A DNA stretch of 64,000 bases from assembly GCA_040756035.1 (NCBI GenBank), contig JBFLZV010000002.1, positions 16,124 to 80,123 of the forward strand. Reading direction: 5' to 3'. Below the pieces are notes generated by a model, which saw only the letters and a program-made list of their open reading frames with translations, made no database searches and had not been told where the DNA came from. Position 1 is the first letter of the stretch; each line of letters starts with the position of its first letter. This DNA comes from Pseudomonadota bacterium. Its GTDB lineage: Bacteria; Pseudomonadota; Gammaproteobacteria; SURF-13. The translations under genes were made by a program, and so were the position numbers. Shown here piece after piece: positions 2,561-60,755 of the stretch.

Positions 2561-3817
2561 CTAGCGCTTCATCGAATCGAAAAATTCCGCGTTGGTCTTG
2601 GTGGCTTTGAGGCGGTCGAGCAGGAACTCCATGGCGGCGAGTTCGTCCATGGGGTGCAGTAGTTTGCGCAGGATCCACATCTTCTGCAATTCGTCGGGCT
2701 TGGTGAGGAGTTCTTCGCGGCGCGTGCCGGAGCGGTTGATGTGGATGGCTGGGTAGATGCGTTTTTCGGCGATCTTGCGGTCCAAATGGATTTCCATGTT
2801 GCCGGTACCCTTGAATTCCTCGTAGATCACGTCGTCCATGCGCGAGCCGGTGTCGATGAGAGCGGTGGCGATGATGGTGAGGCTGCCGCCTTCTTCAATG
2901 TTGCGCGCGGCGCCGAAGAAGCGCTTGGGGCGTTGCAGCGCGTTGGCGTCCACGCCGCCGGTGAGCACCTTGCCGGAGGACGGGATGACCGTGTTGTAAG
3001 CGCGCGCCAGGCGCGTGATGGAGTCGAGCAGAATCACCACGTCGCGCTTGTGTTCGACCAGGCGTTTGGCCTTTTCGATGACCATTTCGGCCACTTGTAC
3101 GTGGCGGCTGGCGGGTTCGTCAAAGGTGCTGGACACTACTTCACCCTTCACCGAGCGCGCCATTTCCGTCACTTCTTCCGGGCGCTCGTCGATCAGCAGC
3201 ACAATCAAATAGCATTCGGGATGGTTGGCGGCGATGGACTGCGCGATGTTTTGCAGCATCATGGTCTTGCCCGACTTAGGCGAGGAGACGATCAGGCCGC
3301 GTTGGCCCTTGCCGATGGGTGCGATCAGGTCGATGACGCGTGCGGTGATGTCCTCGGTGCTGCCGTTGCCTTGCTCCAGCGTGAGCCGCTCGTTGGCGAA
3401 CAGCGGTGTGAGGTTTTCAAACAGCACTTTGTTCTTGGCGTTTTCCGGAGCCTCGAAATTGATCTCGCTGACCTTGAGCAGCGCGAAGTAGCGCTCGCCC
3501 TCCTTGGGCGGGCGGATCTTGCCGGACACCGTGTCGCCGGTGCGCAGGTTGAAGCGCCGCACCTGGCTGGGCGAGACGTAGATGTCGTCCGGGCCGGCAA
3601 GGAACGAGCTATCGGCGGAGCGCAGGAAGCCAAAACCGTCTTGAAGGATTTCCAGCACGCCGTCGCCGAAGATATCTTCGCCCTTTTGCGCGTGCGCCTT
3701 GAGGATGGCGAAGATCACGTCTTGCTTACGCGAGCGCGCCATGCCCTCGATTTCCATCGATTGGGCAAGGTCGATGAGTTCAGCGGCGGGTTTCTTTTTG
3801 AGTTCGGTGAGATTCAT
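2561..3817 (-). CDS. rho: Transcription termination factor Rho
   Basis: 418 aa. Has the N-terminal RNA-binding/cold-shock-like domain and the RecA-type ATPase core ([10 protein letters not shown] Walker A). Lies in the conserved rho-trxA neighbourhood. Confidence 0.95.
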
Positions 3818-17813: not shown

Positions 17814-17890
17814 GGTGATAAGCAACGGGTGATGAGTAATGAGTGATGGGTGATGTTTTACTCATTACCGTTTACTCATTACCCATCACC
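17814..17890. repeat. Purine-unit/pyrimidine-unit palindromic element (family 2, copy A; GGTGAT/GAGTAA units)
   Basis: GGGTGATGAGTAATGAGTGATGGGTGATG ... TTACTCATTACCGTTTACTCATTACCCATCACC, between the dat start and the dacA stop. Confidence 0.75.
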
Positions 17891-17891
17891 G

Positions 17892-19082
17892 TTAACTAAA
17901 CCACAACTTGATCGTATCGATTAAGCGCCGCCACCAACTGCCTTGCGCCACGTCTTGCAGCGCGATCAGCGGGCGCGTGAGCAGCACCTTGTCGTTCAGG
18001 CTGATCTTCACGACGCCGTGCGTGGCGCCCTTGCGCGCCGGCGCGATCACCGATTTTTCGATTTCCATGGCGGCCTTGAGATTTTGGTACTGGCCGCGCG
18101 GCACGGTAATGTACAAGTCTTCGCCGATGCCGAGCGCCAGGCTCGGGCTCGCGCCCTTCCACACGCGCACTGTGGACAGCGGTGTCGCGGCGGCGTACAG
18201 GCGCTGCGTTTCGTAGGTGCGGAAGCCGTAGTTGAGCAGCGCCTGGCTTTCGTCGGCGCGCACATTTTCACTCTTGGTGCCGAGCACCACGGAGATGAGG
18301 CGCATACCGTCGCGCTGCGCCGAGGCGACCAAACAGTAGCCCGCCGATTCGGTGTGGCCGGTTTTTATGCCGTCCACGTTGCCGTCGCGCCACAATAATT
18401 TATTACGGTTGTATTGCTTGATGCCGTTGTAGGCGAATTCCTTCAGCGAGTACCACTTATAGTATTCCGGAAATTCGCGGATCATGGCGCGCGCCAGTTT
18501 GCCCATGTCGCGCGCGGTGATATACAGCTCCGGGTCGGGCAGGCCGGTGCTGTTGGTGAAGTGGCTGTGTTCCATGCCGAGTTCCTTGGCGTATTGATTC
18601 ATCAACGCGGCAAAGCCTTCCTCGCTGCCCGCCACGTGCTCGGCCAGTGCGACGGTCGCGTCGTTGCCGGATTGCACGATCATGCCCTTGAGCAAGTCCT
18701 CCACGCTGACTTGCGTGCCGACTTGCACAAAACTGCGCGAGCCGCCGGTGCGCCACGCCTTTTCGCTGACCGTGATCTTGTCGGCGAGCTGCATCTTGCC
18801 GGCGCCTAGCGCCTTGAACACCGCGTAGGCGGTCATGAGCTTGGTCAGGCTCGCCGGTTCCATGCGCACGTCGGCGTTGGATTCGGCCAGCACCTCGCCG
18901 CTGTAAAAATCTTGCAATAAATAAGCGCGCGCCGTGCTGGTGGGCGGCGGTGGCGTCGGCTGCTGCGGCGCCGCGGCAACCGGCGCGGTGGCCTTGGGAG
19001 GGGCGGACTGCGGCGCGTCCGCGGCGGCGTGCGCGTTGGCTACACAGAACGCGAGAAGTACAGCAAAGAAATGATGTTTCAT
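17892..19082 (-). CDS. dacA: D-alanyl-D-alanine carboxypeptidase (PBP5/6 family)
   Basis: Has SxxK (ASLTKLM), SGN and KTG motifs. A signal peptide begins at MKHHFFAVLL (ATG at 19082). Confidence 0.9.
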   Translation of the reverse strand: MKHHFFAVLLAFCVANAHAAADAPQSAPPKATAPVAAAPQQPTPPPPTSTARAYLLQDFYSGEVLAESNADVRMEPASLTKLMTAYAVFKALGAGKMQLADKITVSEKAWRTGGSRSFVQVGTQVSVEDLLKGMIVQSGNDATVALAEHVAGSEEGFAALMNQYAKELGMEHSHFTNSTGLPDPELYITARDMGKLARAMIREFPEYYKWYSLKEFAYNGIKQYNRNKLLWRDGNVDGIKTGHTESAGYCLVASAQRDGMRLISVVLGTKSENVRADESQALLNYGFRTYETQRLYAAATPLSTVRVWKGASPSLALGIGEDLYITVPRGQYQNLKAAMEIEKSVIAPARKGATHGVVKISLNDKVLLTRPLIALQDVAQGSWWRRLIDTIKLWFS

Positions 19083-19125
19083 GGCGATGAACAACCTTAG
19101 TGCTGAATAGCCGTTGCTAAAAAAT

Positions 19126-19247
19126 CCAACGCAAAGACGCAAATAAAGTAACGAGTTGCAAGTGACAAGATAAAAATCAATCTCTATGCCTTTTCTTGTA
19201 ACTTGTCACTTGTTACTTGAAACTGTTTTTCGGCGTTTTTGCGTTGG
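19126..19247. mobile_element. Composite small element: TIRs CCAACGCAAAGACGC / GCGTTTTTGCGTTGG enclose a family-3 ACAAGT-unit hairpin. Lies in the dacA upstream region.
   Basis: The TIRs match at 14 of 15 positions and are related to the sucC-sucD MITE TIR. The inner arms are GTTGCAAGTGACAAG (19155-19169) and CTTGTAACTTGTCACTTGTTACTTG (19195-19219). Confidence 0.6.
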
Positions 19248-19309
19248 ATTTTTTGGAAATTAAGGACTTGTAACATCGTAGCGACGCTATCATAGTGGCC
19301 GCGCGCGTA

Positions 19310-20163
19310 TTAATCAATGACTACGTGCGGCGCTTCCAGGCCGAGGCGCATGATGCTTGCGGCGATGCGGTCGGCTTCGTCGACGTCCTTCAGCGGGCCG
19401 AGACGCACGCGATACACGGCCGCTTGGTTAAGCGTGGCCTGGACGATTTTTGTCACGGAAGCAAAGTTCACCGCTAGGCGTTGGCGCAGACGCTCGGCGT
19501 TTTCGCGACTGGCGAAAGCGCCGACCTGGAGGTATAAACTCGGTTCATGCGCGTTCTGCACTGCTTGGACTTGCACGGAGACGTTGGACGGGGCGGCGGG
19601 CGGCGGTTGCGCAGCACCGGTGTCGGCCAACAGCGTGGCGGGTGGATTGTCGCGCGGGTCGATGGAGCGCACTTCGACCAGGCCGGTGCCGGTAGGCAGG
19701 ATGCCGAGCCGGCTGGCGGCGGCGTAGGATAAATCGATCAAGCGATTCTCGTGAAACGGGCCGCGGTCGTTCACGCGCACGACGATGGTGCGCCCGTTGC
19801 GCAGATTGGTGACTTGCACGTACGTGGGCAGCGGCAACGTCTTGTGCGCGGCGGTGAAGGCGTAGAGGTCGTAGGGTTCGCCGCTGGAGGTGCGGCGGCC
19901 ATGGAATTTGGTGCCGTACCACGAGGCGATGCCGCGCTCCACATAGCCCGCGCTGCTTTTAACCGTGACGTAGCGCTTGCCGTAGACCGTATAAGAAGGT
20001 GGGTTACCGTACTTGGCGAGCGGCTCGACGCGCGGCACGGGTTCGGGGATGGTGGATACGTCGATGGGCTGGGCGGGCGCGCCGTCCCGGTCGCCGCCGA
20101 TAATACCTCCGCCCGGAATGTCGGCCGTGCGCGGCAAGCCGCCGCAGCCTTGTAAAAACATAG
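19310..20163 (-). CDS. rlpA: Septal ring lytic transglycosylase RlpA (DPBB + C-terminal SPOR domain). The start is uncertain.
   Basis: DPBB core (ASWYG...TAAHKTLPLPTYVQVTNLRNGRTIVVRVNDRGP) and a C-terminal SPOR domain. The upstream hydrophobic segment LLLVTMFLQGC is encoded by a palindromic element. The true start lies somewhere between 20163 and 20305. Confidence 0.8.
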
Positions 20164-20338
20164 TTACAAGTAACAAGTAATAAGTGACAAGGTGAGGCGG
20201 CGTGCCCCGCCACCGAACGCCCCGCCTGGAGCGGGGCCGTGTTTCGCGCGAAGCATGGATAGCGTAGCGTGAAACCCGCTCCTTAGTTAAAATTTTTTTT
20301 ATCACATTATCATCACTTGATACTTGATTACTTGTAAC
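20164..20338. repeat. Family 3 (ACAAGT-unit) palindromic element, copy I. A ~120-bp GC-rich structured insert sits between its arms. Lies between rlpA and mltB.
   Basis: Left arm GTTACAAGTAACAAGTAATAAGTGACAAGG (20164-20193); right arm TCACTTGATACTTGATTACTTGTAAC (20313-20338). The interior contains the GCCCCGCCTGGAGCGGGGC and TTCGCGCGAA palindromes. Confidence 0.65.
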
Positions 20339-21302
20339 TTTCTTTTATCGCCTGCGATAATTGATACACCGCCATGGCGTATAAGGGGCTGCGATTATAA
20401 CGGGTAATCACGTAAAAGTTTTCCAGTCCCACCCAGTATTCCGTTCCTACCTCGGTTTCAAATTCCAGCAGCGCGCCGAGTTGATCGTCGCGCAAGGCAT
20501 CCCCGCTGACGCTGATGCCGGATTCCTTCAGATGTTGTAGGCTGAATTCCGGCTTCAAGCCGTTGGCGAGCAGTTCGCCGTAGCGGTCGCCGTTGACTTG
20601 CGCGGGCACGGCGACCGGTTTGCCCGGTTGCCAGCCGTGCTCGTGGAAATAATTCGCCACGCTGCCGATGATGTCGTCGATGTCGTTCCACAAGTCGCGC
20701 CGTCCATCGTCATTGAAGTCCACTGCGTAGCGCCGGTAGCTGCTGGGGATGAATTGCCCCCAGCCCATGGCGCCGGCGTAGGAGCCCTTGAGCGCCAACG
20801 GATCGAGCTGTTCTTCGCGCGTGAGCAGCAGATAATTTTCCAATTCGCCGCGGAAGAAATCGGCGCGCGGCGGGTAATCGAAGGCCAGCGTGGCGAGCGC
20901 GTCCAGCACGCGATAGGAACCGGTGATTTTTCCGTAGCGCGTTTCCACGCCGATGATGGCGGTGATGATCTCCGGTGGTACGCCGTAGGTATTTTGCGCG
21001 CGCGCCAGCACTTCGGCGTGTTGATTCCAGAATTGCACGCCGCCCTCGACGCGCGCTTCGTTCACGAAAATCGGGCGGTATTCGTACCAGGGCTTGGCTT
21101 CCGCGGGCCGGCTGATCGCCTCGATGATGTCCGGACGCGCGTTGGCTTGCGCAAACAGCGCGGTCAGATCCGTGTCGCTGAAGCCGTGCCGGGCCGTCAT
21201 CTCGTTAATAAAGTCGCGCAGCTCCGGGCGGTCGATGGCGGCGAAGGTGGAGGATGTCAAACAGACCGCGAGCAGTAGCGCGGCATGAAAATGCTTGTTC
21301 AC
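20328..21302 (-). CDS. mltB: Membrane-bound lytic murein transglycosylase B
   Basis: Has the MltB/Slt35 catalytic domain (IIGVETRYG, GAMGWGQF). The GTG start at 21302 overlaps the rodA TGA stop (GTGA). The N-terminal signal peptide has an AxA cleavage site. Confidence 0.85.
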   Translation of the reverse strand: MNKHFHAALLLAVCLTSSTFAAIDRPELRDFINEMTARHGFSDTDLTALFAQANARPDIIEAISRPAEAKPWYEYRPIFVNEARVEGGVQFWNQHAEVLARAQNTYGVPPEIITAIIGVETRYGKITGSYRVLDALATLAFDYPPRADFFRGELENYLLLTREEQLDPLALKGSYAGAMGWGQFIPSSYRRYAVDFNDDGRRDLWNDIDDIIGSVANYFHEHGWQPGKPVAVPAQVNGDRYGELLANGLKPEFSLQHLKESGISVSGDALRDDQLGALLEFETEVGTEYWVGLENFYVITRYNRSPLYAMAVYQLSQAIKESYK

Positions 21303-27351: not shown

Positions 27352-27356
27352 ACCAG

Positions 27357-27424
27357 TTAGGAGTGAGGCGTAAGGAGTGAGGGGTATGCTATTTACTCCT
27401 TACCCCTCACTTCTTACTCATTAC
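27357..27424. repeat. Family 2 palindromic element, copy B, inside the gatC-gatA intercistronic gap
   Basis: TTAGGAGTGAGGCGTAAGGAGTGAGGGGTA ... TACTCCTTACCCCTCACTTCTTACTCATTAC. Confidence 0.75.
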
Positions 27425-27431
27425 TAAACAT

Positions 27432-30415: not shown

Positions 30416-30421
30416 AATATA

Positions 30422-30516
30422 TGTAGGTTGGGGTGACTCCGCACCTTGCTTGCCACGGTTGCGTGATGTACGGGCTTAGCAATTTGCAAGGTGCGGGGGA
30501 ACCCCAACAAAAATAA
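30422..30516 (+). repeat. REP element copy 2, expanded: a second palindrome (CCGCACCTTGC...GCAAGGTGCGG) is nested in the REP loop
   Basis: TGTAGGTTGGGGTGA...GGAACCCCAACAAAAATAA, between gatB and corA. Confidence 0.8.
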
Positions 30517-37963: not shown

Positions 37964-39136
37964 ATGAATCTCCACGAATACCAAGCCAAACAACTGTTTG
38001 CCGCATACGCCATTTCGGTGACCGCCGGTAAACCGGCGCGCTCGGCGGAGGAGGCGGCGGACGTTGCCGAGGAACTGGGTGGCGCGAATTGGATTGTGAA
38101 GGCGCAGGTGCACGCGGGCGGACGCGGCAAGGCGGGCGGCGTGCGCCGCGCGACGAGTTTGCACGAGGTGCGCGAGATCGTTGCCGCGCTGCTCGGCGCG
38201 CGGCTGGTCACGGCGCAGACCGGCGCCGAGGGTTTGCCCGTGCACAGCGTGCTGATCGAGCGGCCGTGCGCGATTGCGCGCGAGCTGTATCTCGGCGTGC
38301 TGGTCGACCGCGGCCGCGAACGCGTGGTGTTCATGGCGTCGGCGGCGGGCGGCATGGACATCGAGGAGCTCGCCGCCCGCCAGCCCGAAGCCATACACAC
38401 GGCGGCGGTCGATCCGGTGGCGGGTTTGCAGCCTTATCAATGCCGCCGCATCGGTTTCGCGCTGGGTCTGAATGATACGCAGGTAGCGGCGCTCACGCGC
38501 ATCATGTTGAGCCTCTATCGCTTGTTCACGGAAAAAGACGCGAGCCTGGTCGAGATCAATCCGCTCATCGTCACCGACGCGGGTGAGTTGCTGGCGCTGG
38601 ACGCCAAGGTTACGCTCGACGACAACGCCTTATATCGCCAATCCGAACTCGCCGCGCTGCGCGACGTGACGCAAGAGGACGCGCGTGAACACGCCGCGCG
38701 GCAATTCGGACTCAATTACATCACGCTCGGCGGCAACATCGCTTGCATGGTGAACGGCGCCGGATTGGCTATGGCGACCATGGACTTGATCAAGCTGCAC
38801 GGCGGCGAGCCCGCCAATTTTCTCGACGTGGGCGGCGGCACCAGCAGCGAAAAAGTCGCGCAGGCGTTCAAGCTGATATTGTCCGACACCAAGGTCAAGG
38901 CCATCTTGGTGAATATTTTCGGCGGCATTGTGCGCTGCGATTTGATCGCGGAAGGCATCATCCAGGCCGCGCGCGAGACCGCCGTGCGCATTCCCATTGT
39001 GGCGCGCCTGGAAGGCACCAACGTGGAGCGCGGACGCGAATTATTGAAGAACAGCGGCCTAGCCATCGTCACGGCCACGGATTTGACCGATGCGGCGGTG
39101 AAGGCCGTGGCGGCGGGAAAAGGCTTGAAAATCTAA
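37964..39136 (+). CDS. sucC: Succinyl-CoA ligase (ADP-forming) beta subunit
   Basis: 390 aa with the ATP-grasp domain (MNLHEYQAKQLF...). Confidence 0.95.
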   Translation: MNLHEYQAKQLFAAYAISVTAGKPARSAEEAADVAEELGGANWIVKAQVHAGGRGKAGGVRRATSLHEVREIVAALLGARLVTAQTGAEGLPVHSVLIERPCAIARELYLGVLVDRGRERVVFMASAAGGMDIEELAARQPEAIHTAAVDPVAGLQPYQCRRIGFALGLNDTQVAALTRIMLSLYRLFTEKDASLVEINPLIVTDAGELLALDAKVTLDDNALYRQSELAALRDVTQEDAREHAARQFGLNYITLGGNIACMVNGAGLAMATMDLIKLHGGEPANFLDVGGGTSSEKVAQAFKLILSDTKVKAILVNIFGGIVRCDLIAEGIIQAARETAVRIPIVARLEGTNVERGRELLKNSGLAIVTATDLTDAAVKAVAAGKGLKI

Positions 39137-39318
39137 CGCAAAGACGCGAAGACGCAAACAAAAAAATGATTATGGATCAAGATGAAAGTTTATCGTCTCT
39201 GCACTTCTTCGCGGAAAATTATCTTGTTTATATTTACCCCTGCATTTGGGAAGGACTATGAATTTTCCGAGCAAGTGGTTTTTTAATTATTCTCTTTGCG
39301 TCTTGGCGTCTTTGCGTT
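39135..39318. mobile_element. MITE-like element with 24-bp terminal inverted repeats, inserted between sucC and sucD
   Basis: The left TIR AACGCAAAGACGCGAAGACGCAAA (39135-39158) and the reverse complement of the right TIR AACGCAAAGACGCCAAGACGCAAA (39295-39318) match at 23 of 24 positions. The interior is AT-rich. The left TIR starts inside the sucC TAA stop codon. Confidence 0.7.
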
Positions 39319-39333: not shown

Positions 39334-40209
39334 GTGTCAATTTTGATTGATAAAAACACGCGCGTGATTTGCCAAGGCTTCACCGGCAAGCAAGGCACGT
39401 TTCACTCCGAGCAGGCCATTGCTTATGGCACGCGCATGGTGGGCGGTGTTACGCCGGGCAAGGGTGGGCAAACGCATTTGGGGCTGCCGGTGTTCGACAC
39501 CGTGCATGACGCAGTGCGCGCGACCGGCGCGCAGGCGAGCATGATTTACGTGCCCGCACCGTTTGCCGCGGACGCCATTCTGGAAGCGGCGGACGCGGGC
39601 ATGGAATTGATCGTGTGCATTACCGAGGGCATTCCGGTGCTGGACATGCTGAAAGTCAAGGCGGCGCTGCGCGGTTCAACGGCGCGTTTGATCGGGCCGA
39701 ATTGTCCGGGCGTGATTACGCCCGGCGCGTGCAAGATCGGCATCATGCCCGGCGCCATTCATCAACCCGGTTGCGTCGGCATCGTATCACGCTCCGGCAC
39801 GCTCACCTATGAAGCCGTATTCCAAACCACCGCCAACGGCTTGGGACAAAGCACCTGCGTGGGCATCGGCGGCGATCCTATCCAGGGCATGGGTTTTATC
39901 GATTGCCTGGAATTGTTCGAACGCGACGCGCAAACGCGCGGCATTATTCTGGTGGGTGAGATCGGCGGCGCGGCGGAAGAAGCGGCGGCGGATTACATTA
40001 AGCAGCACGTATCCAAACCGGTTGTGGCTTACATCGCCGGTGCGACCGCGCCGCCCGGCAAGCGCATGGGCCACGCGGGTGCGATTATCAGCGGCGGCCA
40101 AGGCACGGCGCACGCGAAAGTCGCCGCGTTGGAAGCGTCTGGCGTGAGCGTCGCGCGCTCGCCCGCGGATATGGGGCGGCTGATGTTTGAGAAGCTCAGT
40201 AAGAAGTGA
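39334..40209 (+). CDS. sucD: Succinyl-CoA ligase alpha subunit
   Basis: 291 aa with the CoA-binding and His-phosphorylation loop signature. GTG start with a GAGG Shine-Dalgarno that directly abuts the right end of a MITE-like insert. Confidence 0.95.
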
Positions 40210-40292
40210 GGAGTTAGGAGTGAGGAGTAAAAACCCCCATGCATCTTGAGCACAGGTCTTCCTCCCCACGCCTTACTTCTTACACCTCACTG
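40206..40292. repeat. Family 2 palindromic element, copy C. Overlaps the sucD stop and lies upstream of nadE.
   Basis: GTGAGGAGTTAGGAGTGAGGAGTAAAAACCCCC ... CTTCCTCCCCACGCCTTACTTCTTACACCTCAC. Confidence 0.75.
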
Positions 40293-43067: not shown

Positions 43068-43087
43068 GGCGTGCTCCTTGGTTAGGG

Positions 43088-43153
43088 GGGGTGAGGTGTG
43101 AGGAGTAAGGAGTAAAAGGTATCACTCCTCACACCTCACTCCTCACGCCTCAC
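43088..43153. repeat. Family 2 palindromic element, copy D, between the nitroreductase gene and bamD
   Basis: GGGTGAGGTGTGAGGAGTAAGGAGTAAAAGG ... TCACTCCTCACACCTCACTCCTCACGCCTCAC. Confidence 0.75.
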
Positions 43154-43156
43154 GAC

Positions 43157-43936
43157 TTACTTAAGCGTTAGATTCTCCACCTCGGCGATGGCCGGGTGAT
43201 CGGGATAGTTCAGCTTCAGCACGCGCAGCGCGTCGGCGGACAGGTCGTTGAGGTTCATGATCTTGTACGCCTTGGCCATCACACCGAGCGCGTCGGGCAC
43301 GGCGGGCGTGCGCGGATAATTTTCCACCACGTATTTGGCGCGGTTGGCGGCGGCCACAAATGCTTCGCGCTTCATGTAATAATTGGCCACGTTGACTTCG
43401 TACTGCGCGAGATTGTTGCGCAGAAAAGTCATGCGCAGCGCGGCGTCCTTGGCGTATTTGCTGTTCGGGAAGCGCTTGACCAGTTCGGCAAAATCCTGGA
43501 ACGATTGGCGCGCGGCGCCGGGGTCGCGCTGCGTCGGGTCTTGCGGCAGATAGCGCTCGACGAGACCGCGGCTTTGATTGAAATTCGCCAACCCCTTTAA
43601 ATAATAGGCGTAGTCCACGTACGGGTGGCGCGGGTGCAGTTTGATAAAGCGGTCCGCGGCGGCGACGGCGGAGGCGGGTTCCTGGTCTTTATAGTAAGCG
43701 TAGATGATTTCCAATTGCGCCTGCTGGGCATAGCGCCCGAACGGGTAGCGGCCTTCCAGGGTCTCGAAATATTTGATGGCGGTGGCGTAGTCGCCGGAAT
43801 CGAGCGCGTCCTTGGCCTCCGCGTAGAGGCGTTCGGCGGACCAGTTCTTGGTCTTGTCGATTTGCTCCGGCAGCAATCCGCAGCCGGCCACGGCGGCGAA
43901 AAGTGCGATAATAAGCAACGATTTGAGAGTGCGCAT
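43157..43936 (-). CDS. bamD: Outer membrane protein assembly factor BamD (YfiO), TPR lipoprotein
   Basis: Lipoprotein signal (LFAAVAGC) plus TPR repeats. Divergent from rluD, as in E. coli. Confidence 0.85.
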
Positions 43937-44043
43937 GGTGTTACCAAGAAGCTCACTGGTTAAGATAACGTCCCCGCTGCGTTCCCGCCCCCCCCTGTGT
44001 AGAGGGCGGGATAGGGTGGGGGCAGGGTGAAATAAGAATTCTA

Positions 44044-44092
44044 CTAAGAAGAAACAAAATAAGCGATGGCCGCTTATTTTGTTTCTTCTTAG
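44044..44092. promoter_or_regulatory. Perfect 22-bp inverted repeat with a 5-nt spacer, in the bamD-rluD divergent promoter region
   Basis: CTAAGAAGAAACAAAATAAGCG-ATGGC-CGCTTATTTTGTTTCTTCTTAG. The exact complementarity was verified by hand. Confidence 0.5.
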
Positions 44093-44113
44093 TTAAGGTG
44101 CTGGGTTAAAGAC

Positions 44114-45978: not shown

Positions 45979-46767
45979 ATGAACCTGCTGGCCTGGATTA
46001 TGCTGTTCAGCCTTATCGGTGGCGTGCTCAGCGTGCTGGCGGCGGGGGCTTTTCTATTATTCCCGGAGCGCTCGCGCATACGCCTGCTGCCGCATCTGGT
46101 CAGCTTCGCCGTCGGCGCGCTGCTCGGCGCGGCGTTTTTGGAACTGTTGCCGGAGGCCATGGAGAGCCCGCACGTCACTACGCAGCAAGTCGGCGCGGCG
46201 GTGTTGATCGGACTGCTGATTTTTTTCGTGCTGGAAAAAATTGTGCTGTGGCGCCACTCGCACGCCGACTCCCCGGAGTGCGCCGCGACGCCGGGTCACG
46301 CGCACCACCATCCGCCGCTGCGCGCGGCCGGCATTCTCATCGTGATCGGCGACGCCATTCACAACTTCGTCGACGGCATACTCATCGCGGCGGCGTTTCT
46401 CACCGACGTGCGCTTAGGAATCATCACCAGCCTGGCCGTCGCCGCACACGAAATTCCGCAGGAGGTGGGCGACTTCGCCATTCTACTGCACAGTGGCTAT
46501 AGCCGCGCCAAGGCGCTGTTCTACAATATTCTGTCGAGCGTCACCACCATCATCGGCGCGCTGCTGGCTTATTACAGCCTTGCCGGCTTGGAGCAAGTGG
46601 TGCCGTTCGTGCTGGCGATCGCGGCGGCCAGTTTTATTTACATCGCCGTCGCGGATTTGTTGCCCGACCTGCACCAGCGCGCGCAGAGGCGCGCGTCGCT
46701 GCAGCAGTTCGCGCTGATCGGTTTGGGCATCGCGTTGATTTACGCGGCGGAAGTGGTTTTGCATTAA
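45979..46767 (+). CDS. zupT: ZIP-family zinc transporter (ZupT-like)
   Basis: 262-aa polytopic protein with the ZIP signature HNFVDGILIAAAF...HEIPQEVGDFAIL. Confidence 0.8.
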   Translation: MNLLAWIMLFSLIGGVLSVLAAGAFLLFPERSRIRLLPHLVSFAVGALLGAAFLELLPEAMESPHVTTQQVGAAVLIGLLIFFVLEKIVLWRHSHADSPECAATPGHAHHHPPLRAAGILIVIGDAIHNFVDGILIAAAFLTDVRLGIITSLAVAAHEIPQEVGDFAILLHSGYSRAKALFYNILSSVTTIIGALLAYYSLAGLEQVVPFVLAIAAASFIYIAVADLLPDLHQRAQRRASLQQFALIGLGIALIYAAEVVLH

Positions 46768-46855
46768 GGGTGATGGGTAATGAGTAAAAACCATCACCCA
46801 TCACCCATCACCCATACCCATCATCCATCACTCATCACTCATTGACTCATTACCC
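46768..46855. repeat. Family 2 palindromic element, copy F, between convergent zupT and cydB. It contains the cydB C-terminus and stop.
   Basis: GGGTGATGGGTAATGAGTAAAAACC ... ATCACCCATCACCCATCACCCATACCCATCATCCATCACTCATCACTCATTGACTCATTACCC. Confidence 0.75.
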
Positions 46856-53672: not shown

Positions 53673-53692
53673 CGTGCACCTCCTTGTTAAAA

Positions 53693-53764
53693 GCAGTTAC
53701 AAGTGACGAGTTGCAAGTTACAAGAAAAACATTAAGCGGTTTTTTATCTTGTCACTTGTAACTG
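53693..53764. repeat. Family 3 palindromic element, copy K, between the CBS gene start and the dienelactone hydrolase stop. It encodes the hydrolase C-terminus.
   Basis: GCAGTTACAAGTGACGAGTTGCAAGTTACAAG ... TCTTGTCACTTGTAACTG. Confidence 0.7.
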
Positions 53765-54443
53765 TTTTTCCAGTCAAGTATTGAACGAACCACTGCCGCG
53801 CCAAATCGGCCACCCGCTCCAGCGTGCCGGGTTCCTCGAACAAATGCGTGGCGCCGCCCACGATCGACAGCTTTTTCACCGCGGGCAGTTGCGCCAATGC
53901 GTCTTCATTGAGGCGCAGCACCGCGACGTCGTCGCCGCCCACGATCAGCAGCGTGGGCGCGCGCACCTTGGCCAGCGCCGGACCCGCCAGGTCGGGCCGT
54001 CCGCCGCGCGACACCACCGCGTGCACGGCGTCCGGATGCCGCGCGGCGGCCAGCAGCGCCGCGCCCGCGCCGGTGCTGGCGCCGAAATAGCCGATCGGCA
54101 ATGCGTGCGTGGCGGCGTGTTCGCGCAGCCAGTCGGTGGCGCGCGTGAGCCGTTCCGCGAGCAGTTCGATGTCGAAGCGCAGGTGCCCGGTGTAGCGCTC
54201 GGCGGCTTCCTCTTCCGCGGTGAGCAGGTCGATGAGCAGTGTGGCTAGGCCGGCCTGTTGCAGCACCTGCGCCACGTAGCGGTTGCGCGGACTATGGCGG
54301 CTGCTGCCGCTGCCGTGCGCGAACAACACCACGCCGCGCGCGTCGGGCGGTATCGTCAAGTCGCCTTCCAAAACCGTATTAGGCCCTATGCTGATGCGCA
54401 CCGGATATTCGTCGAGCGCGGGGCTGGTTGCAGCTGTTCTCAT
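53718..54443 (-). CDS. Dienelactone hydrolase family alpha/beta hydrolase
   Basis: 241 aa with a GxSxG-like nucleophile elbow (GASTGAG) and the DLH fold. The C-terminal 15 codons are encoded by a palindromic element. Confidence 0.7.
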   Translation of the reverse strand: MRTAATSPALDEYPVRISIGPNTVLEGDLTIPPDARGVVLFAHGSGSSRHSPRNRYVAQVLQQAGLATLLIDLLTAEEEAAERYTGHLRFDIELLAERLTRATDWLREHAATHALPIGYFGASTGAGAALLAAARHPDAVHAVVSRGGRPDLAGPALAKVRAPTLLIVGGDDVAVLRLNEDALAQLPAVKKLSIVGGATHLFEEPGTLERVADLARQWFVQYLTGKTVTSDKIKNRLMFFL

Positions 54444-60637: not shown

Positions 60638-60738
60638 GGTGAGGAGTGAGGAGAAAGGTGTGAGGGGTAAAAAAAACCATGCTCCCTAATCAAGGGATTT
60701 CCTGCTCACTCCTCACTCCTTACTCCTCACGCCTCACC
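60638..60738. repeat. Family 2 palindromic element, copy H, between clpB and the HDOD gene
   Basis: The outer 16 bp, GGTGAGGAGTGAGGAG (60638-60653), pair with CTCCTCACGCCTCACC (60723-60738) with one mismatch. The inner arms show the same unit structure. Confidence 0.75.
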
Positions 60739-60755
60739 GGCGCAGCCTCGCACAC

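Follow-up and report, generated by a model that had tools for sequence, protein, structure and literature searches.

A heptamer hairpin repeat at the mltB-rlpA junction of an uncultured gammaproteobacterium is probably read as the signal peptide of RlpA

The 64,000-nt stretch of contig JBFLZV010000002.1 analysed here (the window) raises the question of where its rlpA gene begins and of what the lipoprotein signal of RlpA is made. The gene is part of a cell-wall operon on the minus strand (mrdA, rodA, mltB, rlpA, dacA at 17892-19082, and dat, whose public product is MEW6352836.1). The public RlpA, MEW6352838.1, which matches exactly and was called by the Prokaryotic Genome Annotation Pipeline (PGAP), is a protein of 283 aa that begins MFLQGC, with the lipobox Cys as residue 6 and no hydrophobic region. 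The whole gap from the conserved body and stop of MltB to the codon for this Cys is filled by a hairpin repeat, one of three ACAAGT-unit hairpins in the window (copies A, B and C, copy B being the rlpA copy). It consists of an A-run, a purine-rich 5’ arm, a loop that includes a GC-rich module of 92 nt with helices H1, H2 and H3, a pyrimidine-rich 3’ arm and a T-run (Table 1). A sequence-only reading of the stretch had proposed that the start and lipoprotein signal of rlpA are built from this repeat. In the reading reached here, the rlpA copy is probably an intergenic hairpin repeat that became part of the mltB-rlpA junction in the distant past and has since taken on a coding role, with rlpA starting at GTG 20305, its translation coupled to that of mltB, and the module serving as an RNA leader.

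On the minus strand, the 3’ arm and the T-run encode LVTYYLLLVTMFL, which is the sole hydrophobic stretch before the RlpA Cys. The sequence-only reading had likewise found only one signal-peptide-like stretch in front of the DPBB domain, and its translation of the arm, ending in HLVTYYLLLVTMFLQGC, was correct. Comparison with rlpA of relatives, which it had suggested, places the signal at the same site. In an alignment of 25 RlpA sequences the Cys was invariant, in all homologues the signal peptide was at least 12 residues long and ended at this Cys, and the arm-encoded stretch aligned with the core of the homologues’ signal peptides (consensus C.LLL....L.AC). The cores of the close clade (RlpA ~55-69% identical) are of the L[AV][TA]C[CYH]LLL type, and the product of the 3’ arm is positionally homologous to the hydrophobic regions of relatives, for example LAACYLLLAAMILSGC and LATCHLLLVAVVVSAC.

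Past the last stop in the frame, the first canonical start, and the only one ahead of the hydrophobic stretch, is GTG 20305. The sequence around it, TAATGTGATAA, recurs in the related locus L003, where the GTG lies 1 nt past the mltB stop and, used as the start, yields the textbook signal peptide MITKHHNPTTKKRLIFLVTCNLLLVTMFLQAC; the leaders of the window and L003 differ in length by 66 nt, with the frame kept. We infer that GTG 20305, within the hairpin loop, is the initiation codon of rlpA, giving a 53-residue signal peptide whose long basic N-region is contributed by way of the GC-rich module. A lipoprotein signal for Sec export and signal peptidase II was defined by a basic N-region, a hydrophobic region of ~7-22 residues and the lipobox [LVI][ASTVI][GAS]C. 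From GTG 20305, the N-terminal region contains 12 K/R and 2 E, and the lipobox reads L-Q-G-C, in which Q at position -2 is atypical. A twin-arginine signal was also considered and was rejected, as SRRGVRW and QRRLILL are inconsistent with the twin-arginine motif across lineages.

The junction was compared in 13 lineages, namely the window and 12 further ones for which the DNA was fetched. At least nine lineages besides the window (RlpA 55-69% identical) share the hairpin design at this junction. Between the mltB stop and the Cys codon, CAAGTNN heptamers facing NNACTTG were found in L001, L003, L006, L086, L087, L088, L090 and L091; the junction hairpin folds in these relatives with -43 to -98 kcal/mol, and the NNACTTG heptamers encode the core of the signal peptide. 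L089, L093 and L094 have kept the 3’ heptamer tract alone, and no such tracts occur at the rlpA start of 79 more distant GTDB rlpA loci (L007-L085). The rlpA frame is free of stops from the mltB stop to the Cys in 13/13 lineages (combined p ~0.01 by shuffling), and long leaders are open in this frame even when they are non-homologous, as in L092, with 58 codons before the Cys. Every lineage has a start codon no more than ~40 nt from the mltB stop, often overlapping it, and in relatives where this codon precedes the 5’ arm, the arm is read as a polar N-region, for example KFQVTSS or KWQTASGKWQAK. Since none of the 13 junctions interrupts the rlpA frame, use of the hairpin as the RlpA signal appears to be an old and retained co-option. 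Thus, a repeat origin of the RlpA start and lipoprotein signal, as first proposed, is supported by the alignment of the core, the heptamers of relatives, the open frame and the GTG shared with L003. The idea of two unrelated half-elements was rejected, as both arms recur in L003, where they flank a short loop. In L092 (124-300), a different insertion of ~150 nt lies between the mltB stop and the heptamer tract and is open in the rlpA frame.

The annotated start is implausible because a Cys at residue 6 leaves no hydrophobic region; the MFLQGC start is probably too far downstream and the annotated RlpA too short. If the public annotation were right, with RlpA read from ATG 20161 (or from a TTG 8 codons later), the element would be a purely intergenic spacer resembling a terminator or a repetitive extragenic palindrome (REP), and its open frame would be due to chance. 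This we regard as very improbable. ATG is a canonical start, and PGAP gives 283 aa from it, while the gene calls of the Logan assembly place the RlpA start 8 codons beyond the PGAP start (275 aa); a start at MFLQGC or later, which the sequence-only reading had named as evidence against itself, is found in automatic annotation only. The canonical copies of the family also look like bidirectional terminators, with a hairpin followed by a T-run. A protein with its Cys at residue 6 could, however, undergo neither Sec targeting nor lipoprotein processing, and yet both its domains, DPBB and SPOR, have been conserved intact. The signal peptides of all homologues, moreover, align with the stretch that the arm encodes, and no lineage has a stop in the frame. 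A consensus scan for intrinsic terminators (GC-rich stem of 5-20 pairs, loop of 3-8 nt, U-run) found none on the sense strand of 20150-20350, its sole call being 19229-19248, the inner part of the outer hairpin around copy A. The rlpA copy is therefore not a canonical terminator. A TTTTT end is present in copies A and C, but it follows long, AT-rich stems.

A further point bearing on the annotated ATG is an open reading frame (ORF) in the +1 frame that starts at a conserved ATG in H1 and ends 2 nt before the annotated start, which could allow re-initiation. Re-initiation from this upstream ORF was rejected, as the resulting RlpA would lack a signal peptide, and L001 offers no start in frame beyond the stop of the ORF. 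The ORF itself (20153-20256, minus strand, +1 frame relative to rlpA) opens with the ATG of the conserved H1 loop (TATCCATGCT) and has 30 codons, MLRAKHG...ITCYL and a stop; it may be due to chance. In L001 the same H1-loop ATG is present and the +1 frame is open, and the peptide is unrelated.

Membership of the ACAAGT-unit family was defined by at least three tandem AGTNACA 7-nt units in the 5’ arm, complementary units in the 3’ arm, and flanking A- and T-runs. The canonical shape, that of copies A and C, is an A-run, (AGTNACA)n, a loop, (TGTNACT)n and GTTTTT, ending AACTGTTTTT. The rlpA copy belongs to the family by this definition, with GATAAAAGAAAG as its A-run and ATGTTTTTA as its T-run. 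With one mismatch at most, ACAAGTNACAAGT has 7 matches in the window against 0.07 expected, located only at 19194-19220, 20166-20185, 53699-53711 and 53747-53759, while 7 of the 22 exact ACAAGT/ACTTGT hexamers fall within 368 nt (0.6%) of the 64 kb. The arms of the rlpA copy are inverted (20155-20173 against 20328-20346, 89%; 20168-20181 against 20327-20340, 93%) and match copies A and C at 79-87%. The statistics of unit matches and the inverted-arm matches confirm the three-copy family that had been described from sequence alone, although the extent given for the rlpA copy, 20164-20338, has to be widened to 20153-20349 by adding the A-run and T-run. The purine-arm/pyrimidine-arm design noted as common to the hairpins was also seen, but a purine-first hairpin is automatically identical on either strand. 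The region 20150-20350 folds with -78.7 kcal/mol on the minus strand (z = -6.97) and -76.4 kcal/mol on the plus strand (z = -6.95), and 0/200 shuffles were as good.

At its other end, the element is also read as protein, and the final codons of mltB, AAA GAA AGT TAC AAG TAA (..KESYK, stop at 20328-20330), are the A-run and the first units of the 5’ arm. The purine arm translates to K/Q/S/R-rich and the pyrimidine arm to L/V/T/C-rich sequence, and a 7-nt repeat gives one and the same peptide whichever frame is read. Codons rich in A specify polar residues and their complements hydrophobic ones, and therefore a purine-first hairpin reads as a charged-then-hydrophobic signal peptide. With its 5’ end, the hairpin at the mltB-rlpA junction supplies the end of mltB, and with its 3’ arm and T-run it would supply the signal core. 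Between the window and a sister strain, 3/9 differences are inside the 190-nt element, and no unit-number polymorphism was seen between the two strains. Phase variation by slippage of units was rejected, as the units are imperfect and their number is equal in both strains.

Both enzymes were assigned with NCBIfam profiles. RlpA, a septal ring lytic transglycosylase defined by a DPBB domain, a C-terminal SPOR domain and a score above the family cut-off, scored 156.4 bits with TIGR00413 (cut-off 82.15) and is a member of this family; its homologues contain PF03330 and PF05036. MltB scored 406 bits with TIGR02282 (cut-off 281), the profile ending at residue 319/324, and a 99%-identical strain has an SLT_2 gene of 324 aa.

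Table 1 Parts of the rlpA copy, adjoining genes and the other two ACAAGT-unit hairpins, with positions in the window.
Feature	Position	Strand	Remarks
A-run and 5’ (purine) arm	20306-20349	-	Sense strand GATAAAAGAAAGTTACAAGTAATCAAGTATCAAGTGATGATAAT; inverted-repeat pairs I6 and I13; pairs with 20162-20193 in the minimum-energy fold
GTG, proposed rlpA start	20303-20305	-	In the hairpin loop; 22 nt past the mltB stop
A/T-rich loop spacer, ~20 nt	20283-20302	-	ATAAAAAAAATTTTAACTAA; sister-strain difference at 20293
GC-rich 92-nt module	20191-20282	-	GAGC/GUUC closing helix around H1 and H2, then H3
H1; H2; H3	20238-20279; 20219-20237; 20196-20214	-	Helices of the GC-rich module
3’ (pyrimidine) arm	20162-20193	-	CCTTGTCACTTATTACTTGTTACTTGTAACT; encodes (H)LVTYYLLLVT, core of the hydrophobic region
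T-run, ATG TTT TTA (M-F-L)	20153-20161	-	ATG is the public start; from comparison with copies A and C
Lipobox Cys codon (L-Q-G-C)	20144-20146	-	Cys invariant in the 25-sequence RlpA alignment
mltB (lytic murein transglycosylase B)	20328-21302	-	NCBIfam TIGR02282, ORF list
rlpA as proposed	19310-20305	-	331-aa precursor: 53-residue signal peptide, then DPBB and SPOR domains
Copy A	19141-19230		Between rlpA and dacA; inverted repeats I2-I4; fold -62.2 kcal/mol
Copy C	53689-53769		Between a CBS-domain gene and an alpha/beta-hydrolase gene; inverted repeat I10

Copy A is itself enclosed, and 19114-19259 is a hairpin in a hairpin, with GACGCAA-type arms (CCAACGCAAAGACGCAAA / TTTGCGTTGG) around copy A and an overall fold of -62 kcal/mol. 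At copy C, the alpha/beta-hydrolase ORF (53718-54443) runs into the repeat and acquires a repeat-encoded tail of ~15 residues, ending in TVTSDKIKNRLMFFL before the stop.

The GC-rich module has the same architecture in the window (-44.9 kcal/mol) and in L001 (-44.5 kcal/mol), and within the loci and collections searched it recurs solely upstream of rlpA in the L001/L005 lineage, whose RlpA is 61% identical. In a 2-kb mltB-rlpA alignment with a mean identity of 0.64, a 30-nt peak of 0.97 falls on the 5’ strand and loop of H1, above the cores of the enzymes (0.90-0.93), and this part is identical at 31/31 nt between the window and L001. H2 is GCCCCGC/GCGGGGC in the window and GGGCTTGC/GCAAGCCC in L001, so that 5/7 pairs are double-changed and none is broken. 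H3 is near-identical, yet the two lineages translate it in different frames (GVRWRGTPP against RSAAGQRR), and therefore the constraint is on nucleic acid and not on protein. A Shine-Dalgarno-like GGAG is paired in the closing helix, and the one strain-level change within the module is in the loop of H2. TCACGC and a GC hairpin (ACGCCCCGGGGGGC or ACGCCCAACGGGGCGT) are at the same place in L087, L093 and L094, and the L003 junction carries AGCATCAC. The comparison suggests that the module may be an old leader elaborated here and not a foreign insertion. By these alignments and folds, the 92-nt module appears to be a folded nucleic-acid element (three-way junction and hairpin) constrained in sequence and structure, not as protein, and it would most likely act as an RNA leader tuning the initiation of rlpA.

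With regard to what had been read from the sequence before, the palindromes GCCCCGCCTGGAGCGGGGC (20219-20237) and TTCGCGCGAA are present, each unique in the window. The GC-rich insert of ~120 bp said to contain them does have such a part, but it is made up of the 92 nt of the module and the ~20 nt of the A/T-rich spacer. The insert folds into three helices. It is better described as the elaboration of an older leader than as a nested insert, and it is present in single copy, not as a dispersed repeat.

Alternatively, the module could be an independent functional RNA, either a cis-regulatory leader sensing a ligand, a protein or temperature or a small RNA, to which the hairpin is merely the host. 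The fold common to two lineages, the identity peak at H1, the paired changes of H2, the conservation of H3 in another frame, the sequestered GGAG and the GC hairpin with TCACGC in further lineages all favour this explanation, which we nonetheless hold to be rather unlikely. The module is known from two independent lineages only, too few for a covariation test, and RNAalifold on the MAFFT alignment returned no compensatory pair, H2 being misaligned there, so that H2 was judged from single-sequence folds. Palindromes can, moreover, keep perfect arms without selection, and the module is absent from sister lineages. Rfam has no match to it: a scan of the window at gathering thresholds gave tRNA only, and a permissive scan of 20100-20400 gave one chance-level match (Arthropod 7SK, 9.8 bits, E = 0.94). 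No promoter or terminator of its own was found. A hammerhead ribozyme, considered for the CGAAAC motif, was rejected, as the CUGAUGA core is missing and Rfam is unmatched. No second copy was detected in the window, in 487 kb of related loci (nhmmer) or in plasmid or phage collections, and a 20-mer search of Joint Genome Institute metagenomes gave one contig, from the same organism as L001. Several copies or unrelated contexts, as expected of a dispersed or mobile repeat, were thus not seen for the module.

The position of the start bears on how RlpA may be expressed. Ribosomes finishing mltB would open the ~30-bp helix before initiation at rlpA, and since the start lies in or next to this helix at the mltB stop, RlpA synthesis could be tied to translation of MltB. 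That the hairpin links the synthesis of both proteins through translational coupling is less certain than its coding use, but given the start position we infer that structure-dependent coupling is the most economical mechanism. Several observations are consistent with a role of the helix in RNA. Complementarity of the 5’ arm is kept in 9 lineages, although hydrophobicity is needed from the 3’ arm only. The sense strand folds better than the antisense strand in 7/9 lineages, wobble pairs at the junction are more often 5’G-3’U (31) than 5’U-3’G (17), and in L001, L006 and L090 a 5’ arm rich in G faces a coding arm rich in U.

The coding use could be real and the hairpin still be without a regulatory role. 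It would then be a DNA-level palindromic repeat, selfish or produced by slippage and hairpin-templated repair, kept there only for its 3’ arm, by then an indispensable signal peptide, and the module would be a remnant of a nested element or a recombined cassette. We consider this possible, though less than probable. It is favoured by the presence of ~10 hairpins with heptamer arms of several unit types in short intergenic gaps, by the frequency of nesting, of which 19114-19259 is an example, and by the sister-strain differences in the element. The close pairs L001/L006 and window/L003 point the same way, as near-identical flanks enclose differing loops or arms, indicative of rapid turnover or cassette exchange. 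Thus, L001 (1842-2000) and L006 (2406-2505) have identical mltB 3’ ends, near-identical mature rlpA, and wholly different arms, loop and module, and the junction seems to behave like a replaceable cassette. Against a neutral repeat are the retained complementarity of the 5’ arm, the G-U-biased changes that favour the sense RNA at the junction, and the module, which is single-copy and whose H1 exceeds the cores of the adjacent enzymes in conservation. In the more distant L086-L088, furthermore, the hairpin is confined to the mltB-rlpA junction within their contigs.

Co-option with coupling and an RNA leader remains the explanation that we favour, but a number of points weigh against it. The rlpA start is a predicted one, GTG 20305 has no clear Shine-Dalgarno sequence, and a 38-residue N-terminal region with a net charge of ~+10, together with Q at -2 of the lipobox, is atypical. 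For the window alone, the stop-free test is weak (P = 0.095). Covariation of the arms is also weak, as would suit a neutral repeat, own arms giving -34.0 and crossed arms -29.1 kcal/mol (permutation p = 0.018), a consequence of the conserved CAAGT/ACTTG core. Across 10 hairpins of the window, of all families, there was no bias towards folding of the sense strand (5 vs 5), so that hairpins in general look like DNA palindromes and a coupling role is specific pleading for the rlpA copy. Last, close sisters lack the module although their flanks are near-identical (L003 vs window, L006 vs L001). It has therefore undergone recent gain, loss or exchange and is dispensable.

Tracts with a period of 7 nt were found at 10 places in the window, all of them at gene junctions. 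Heptamer hairpins with other units (GGTGATG, AGTGAGG, GTGAGGA and their complements) are at 17825-17892, 27355-27425, 40197-40292, 43085-43162, 46754-46845 and 60639-60739. Such hairpins occupy short gaps between genes, at ~10 per 64 kb, the purine arm preceding in every case. In the GTGAGGA type, the 3’ arms are similar to the anti-Shine-Dalgarno end of 16S rRNA, and GGAG recurs in the 5’ arms. A GACGCAA-type hairpin at 39135-39318, between two plus-strand genes, has 33-nt arms (88% complementary) and an AT-rich loop of 118 nt that shows no similarity to the rlpA module. Two palindromes are not heptameric, namely a perfect one of 23 bp at 44043-44093 (ACTAAGAAGAAACAAAATAAGCG, 5 nt, complement) in a divergent intergenic region, and a GC-richer hairpin after gatB at 30420-30515, with 30-nt arms (80% complementary) and -50 kcal/mol. 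In L089 (RlpA 53% identical), GCGAGTG-type tracts are at the gatB-gatA and gatA-gatC junctions (1408-1447 and 2991-3030), and in the window the AGTGAGG-type hairpin at 27355-27425 is at the gatC-gatA junction. After dacA, L001 and L003 have ACAAGT hairpins where the window has the GGTGATG type. The positions of hairpins seem to be conserved while their unit sequences change.

Several known systems invite comparison. REPs and bacterial interspersed mosaic elements of enterobacteria and pseudomonads are short intergenic palindromes in operons, for which stabilisation of mRNA, attenuation and differential expression have been proposed; a REP is a GC-rich palindrome of 20-40 nt with a GTAG or CGTC head, a high copy number and an associated gene for a REP-associated tyrosine transposase. 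The hairpins described here are likewise palindromes in intergenic gaps inside operons, nested or clustered, but they have AT-rich heptameric arms of 25-35 nt, in contrast to window genes of ~58-74% GC, and no GTAG/CGTC head in the 64 kb seen, the transposase gene not having been searched for; with such arms and no such head, the rlpA copy is not a REP. Miniature inverted-repeat transposable elements have terminal inverted repeats, a target-site duplication and dispersed near-identical copies; no such direct duplication was evident at the ends of copies A, B and C, whose arms are inverted and which are 79-87% alike over the arms only, and the rlpA copy is not demonstrably an element of this kind. 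Structure-dependent translational coupling is known from the coat and replicase genes of MS2 and from many overlapping bacterial gene pairs. As in those systems, the downstream start is in or beside a helix whose other strand is the translated end of the upstream gene, with stop and start a few nt apart or overlapping in most lineages. The coupling proposed here would differ in a much longer helix, whose 3’ strand itself codes for the signal peptide.

Repeats of 7-nt units are also known as the short tandemly repeated repetitive (STRR) heptanucleotides of cyanobacteria, which are mostly intergenic and lineage-specific. The TAACTGA repeats of marine Beggiatoaceae are also of 7 nt, mostly intergenic, abundant in the lineage and often just upstream of starts, and form sets of direct repeats, inverted in 1/170 (MacGregor 2015, PMC4679880). 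The hairpins of the window have the tandem, mainly intergenic 7-nt units typical of both. They differ in their units (AGTNACA, AGTGAGG, GGTGATG and AGACGCA), in forming long hairpins of purine arm, loop and pyrimidine arm, and in that one copy is coding. In-frame translation of palindromic repeats is known for the Rickettsia palindromic element (RPE) and for the Yersinia YPAL/RU-2 element, which in translation makes up part of the predicted signal peptide of YPO1552 (Delihas 2008, PMC2229807). Here, as with YPAL, a hairpin repeat is read as protein and its hydrophobic part contributes to a predicted signal peptide. Unlike in RPE and YPAL, the host is a conserved housekeeping lipoprotein and not a hypothetical protein, the repeat is kept across a clade ~55-69% identical, and the arms are tandem heptamers with the same peptide in three frames; in sequence the hairpin resembles neither of them, and it has no evident terminal inverted repeats or target duplication. 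No description of such a heptamer-hairpin signal-peptide element was found in the literature. What appears particular to this locus is the combination: in-frame palindromic repeats and lineage heptamer repeats, each known, would meet in a conserved housekeeping lipoprotein, retained in a clade, independent of frame and with an added folded module.

A broader proposal is that heptamer hairpins are a general source of export signals in this lineage and that the mltB-rlpA hairpin with its module is an undescribed RNA device setting RlpA against MltB, possibly in response to a signal. This is quite unlikely, but if true, one stretch of sequence would be a repeat, a regulatory RNA and a signal peptide together. 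As far as the coding use goes, the junction would be a clean and phylogenetically deep case of a repeat becoming an essential part of a protein, the signal peptide of a conserved cell-division lipoprotein, and the sense/antisense logic of the genetic code would explain why a purine/pyrimidine hairpin is pre-adapted to this use. Automatic annotation probably truncates rlpA, the public RlpA starting 5 residues before the lipobox Cys, and other genes whose starts are overlapped by such repeats are likely to be misannotated in the same way. A heptamer-hairpin repeat system is documented in uncultured Gammaproteobacteria, comparable to the heptamers of cyanobacteria and Beggiatoaceae, and the conserved 92-nt folded module is a candidate that could represent a new cis-regulatory RNA.

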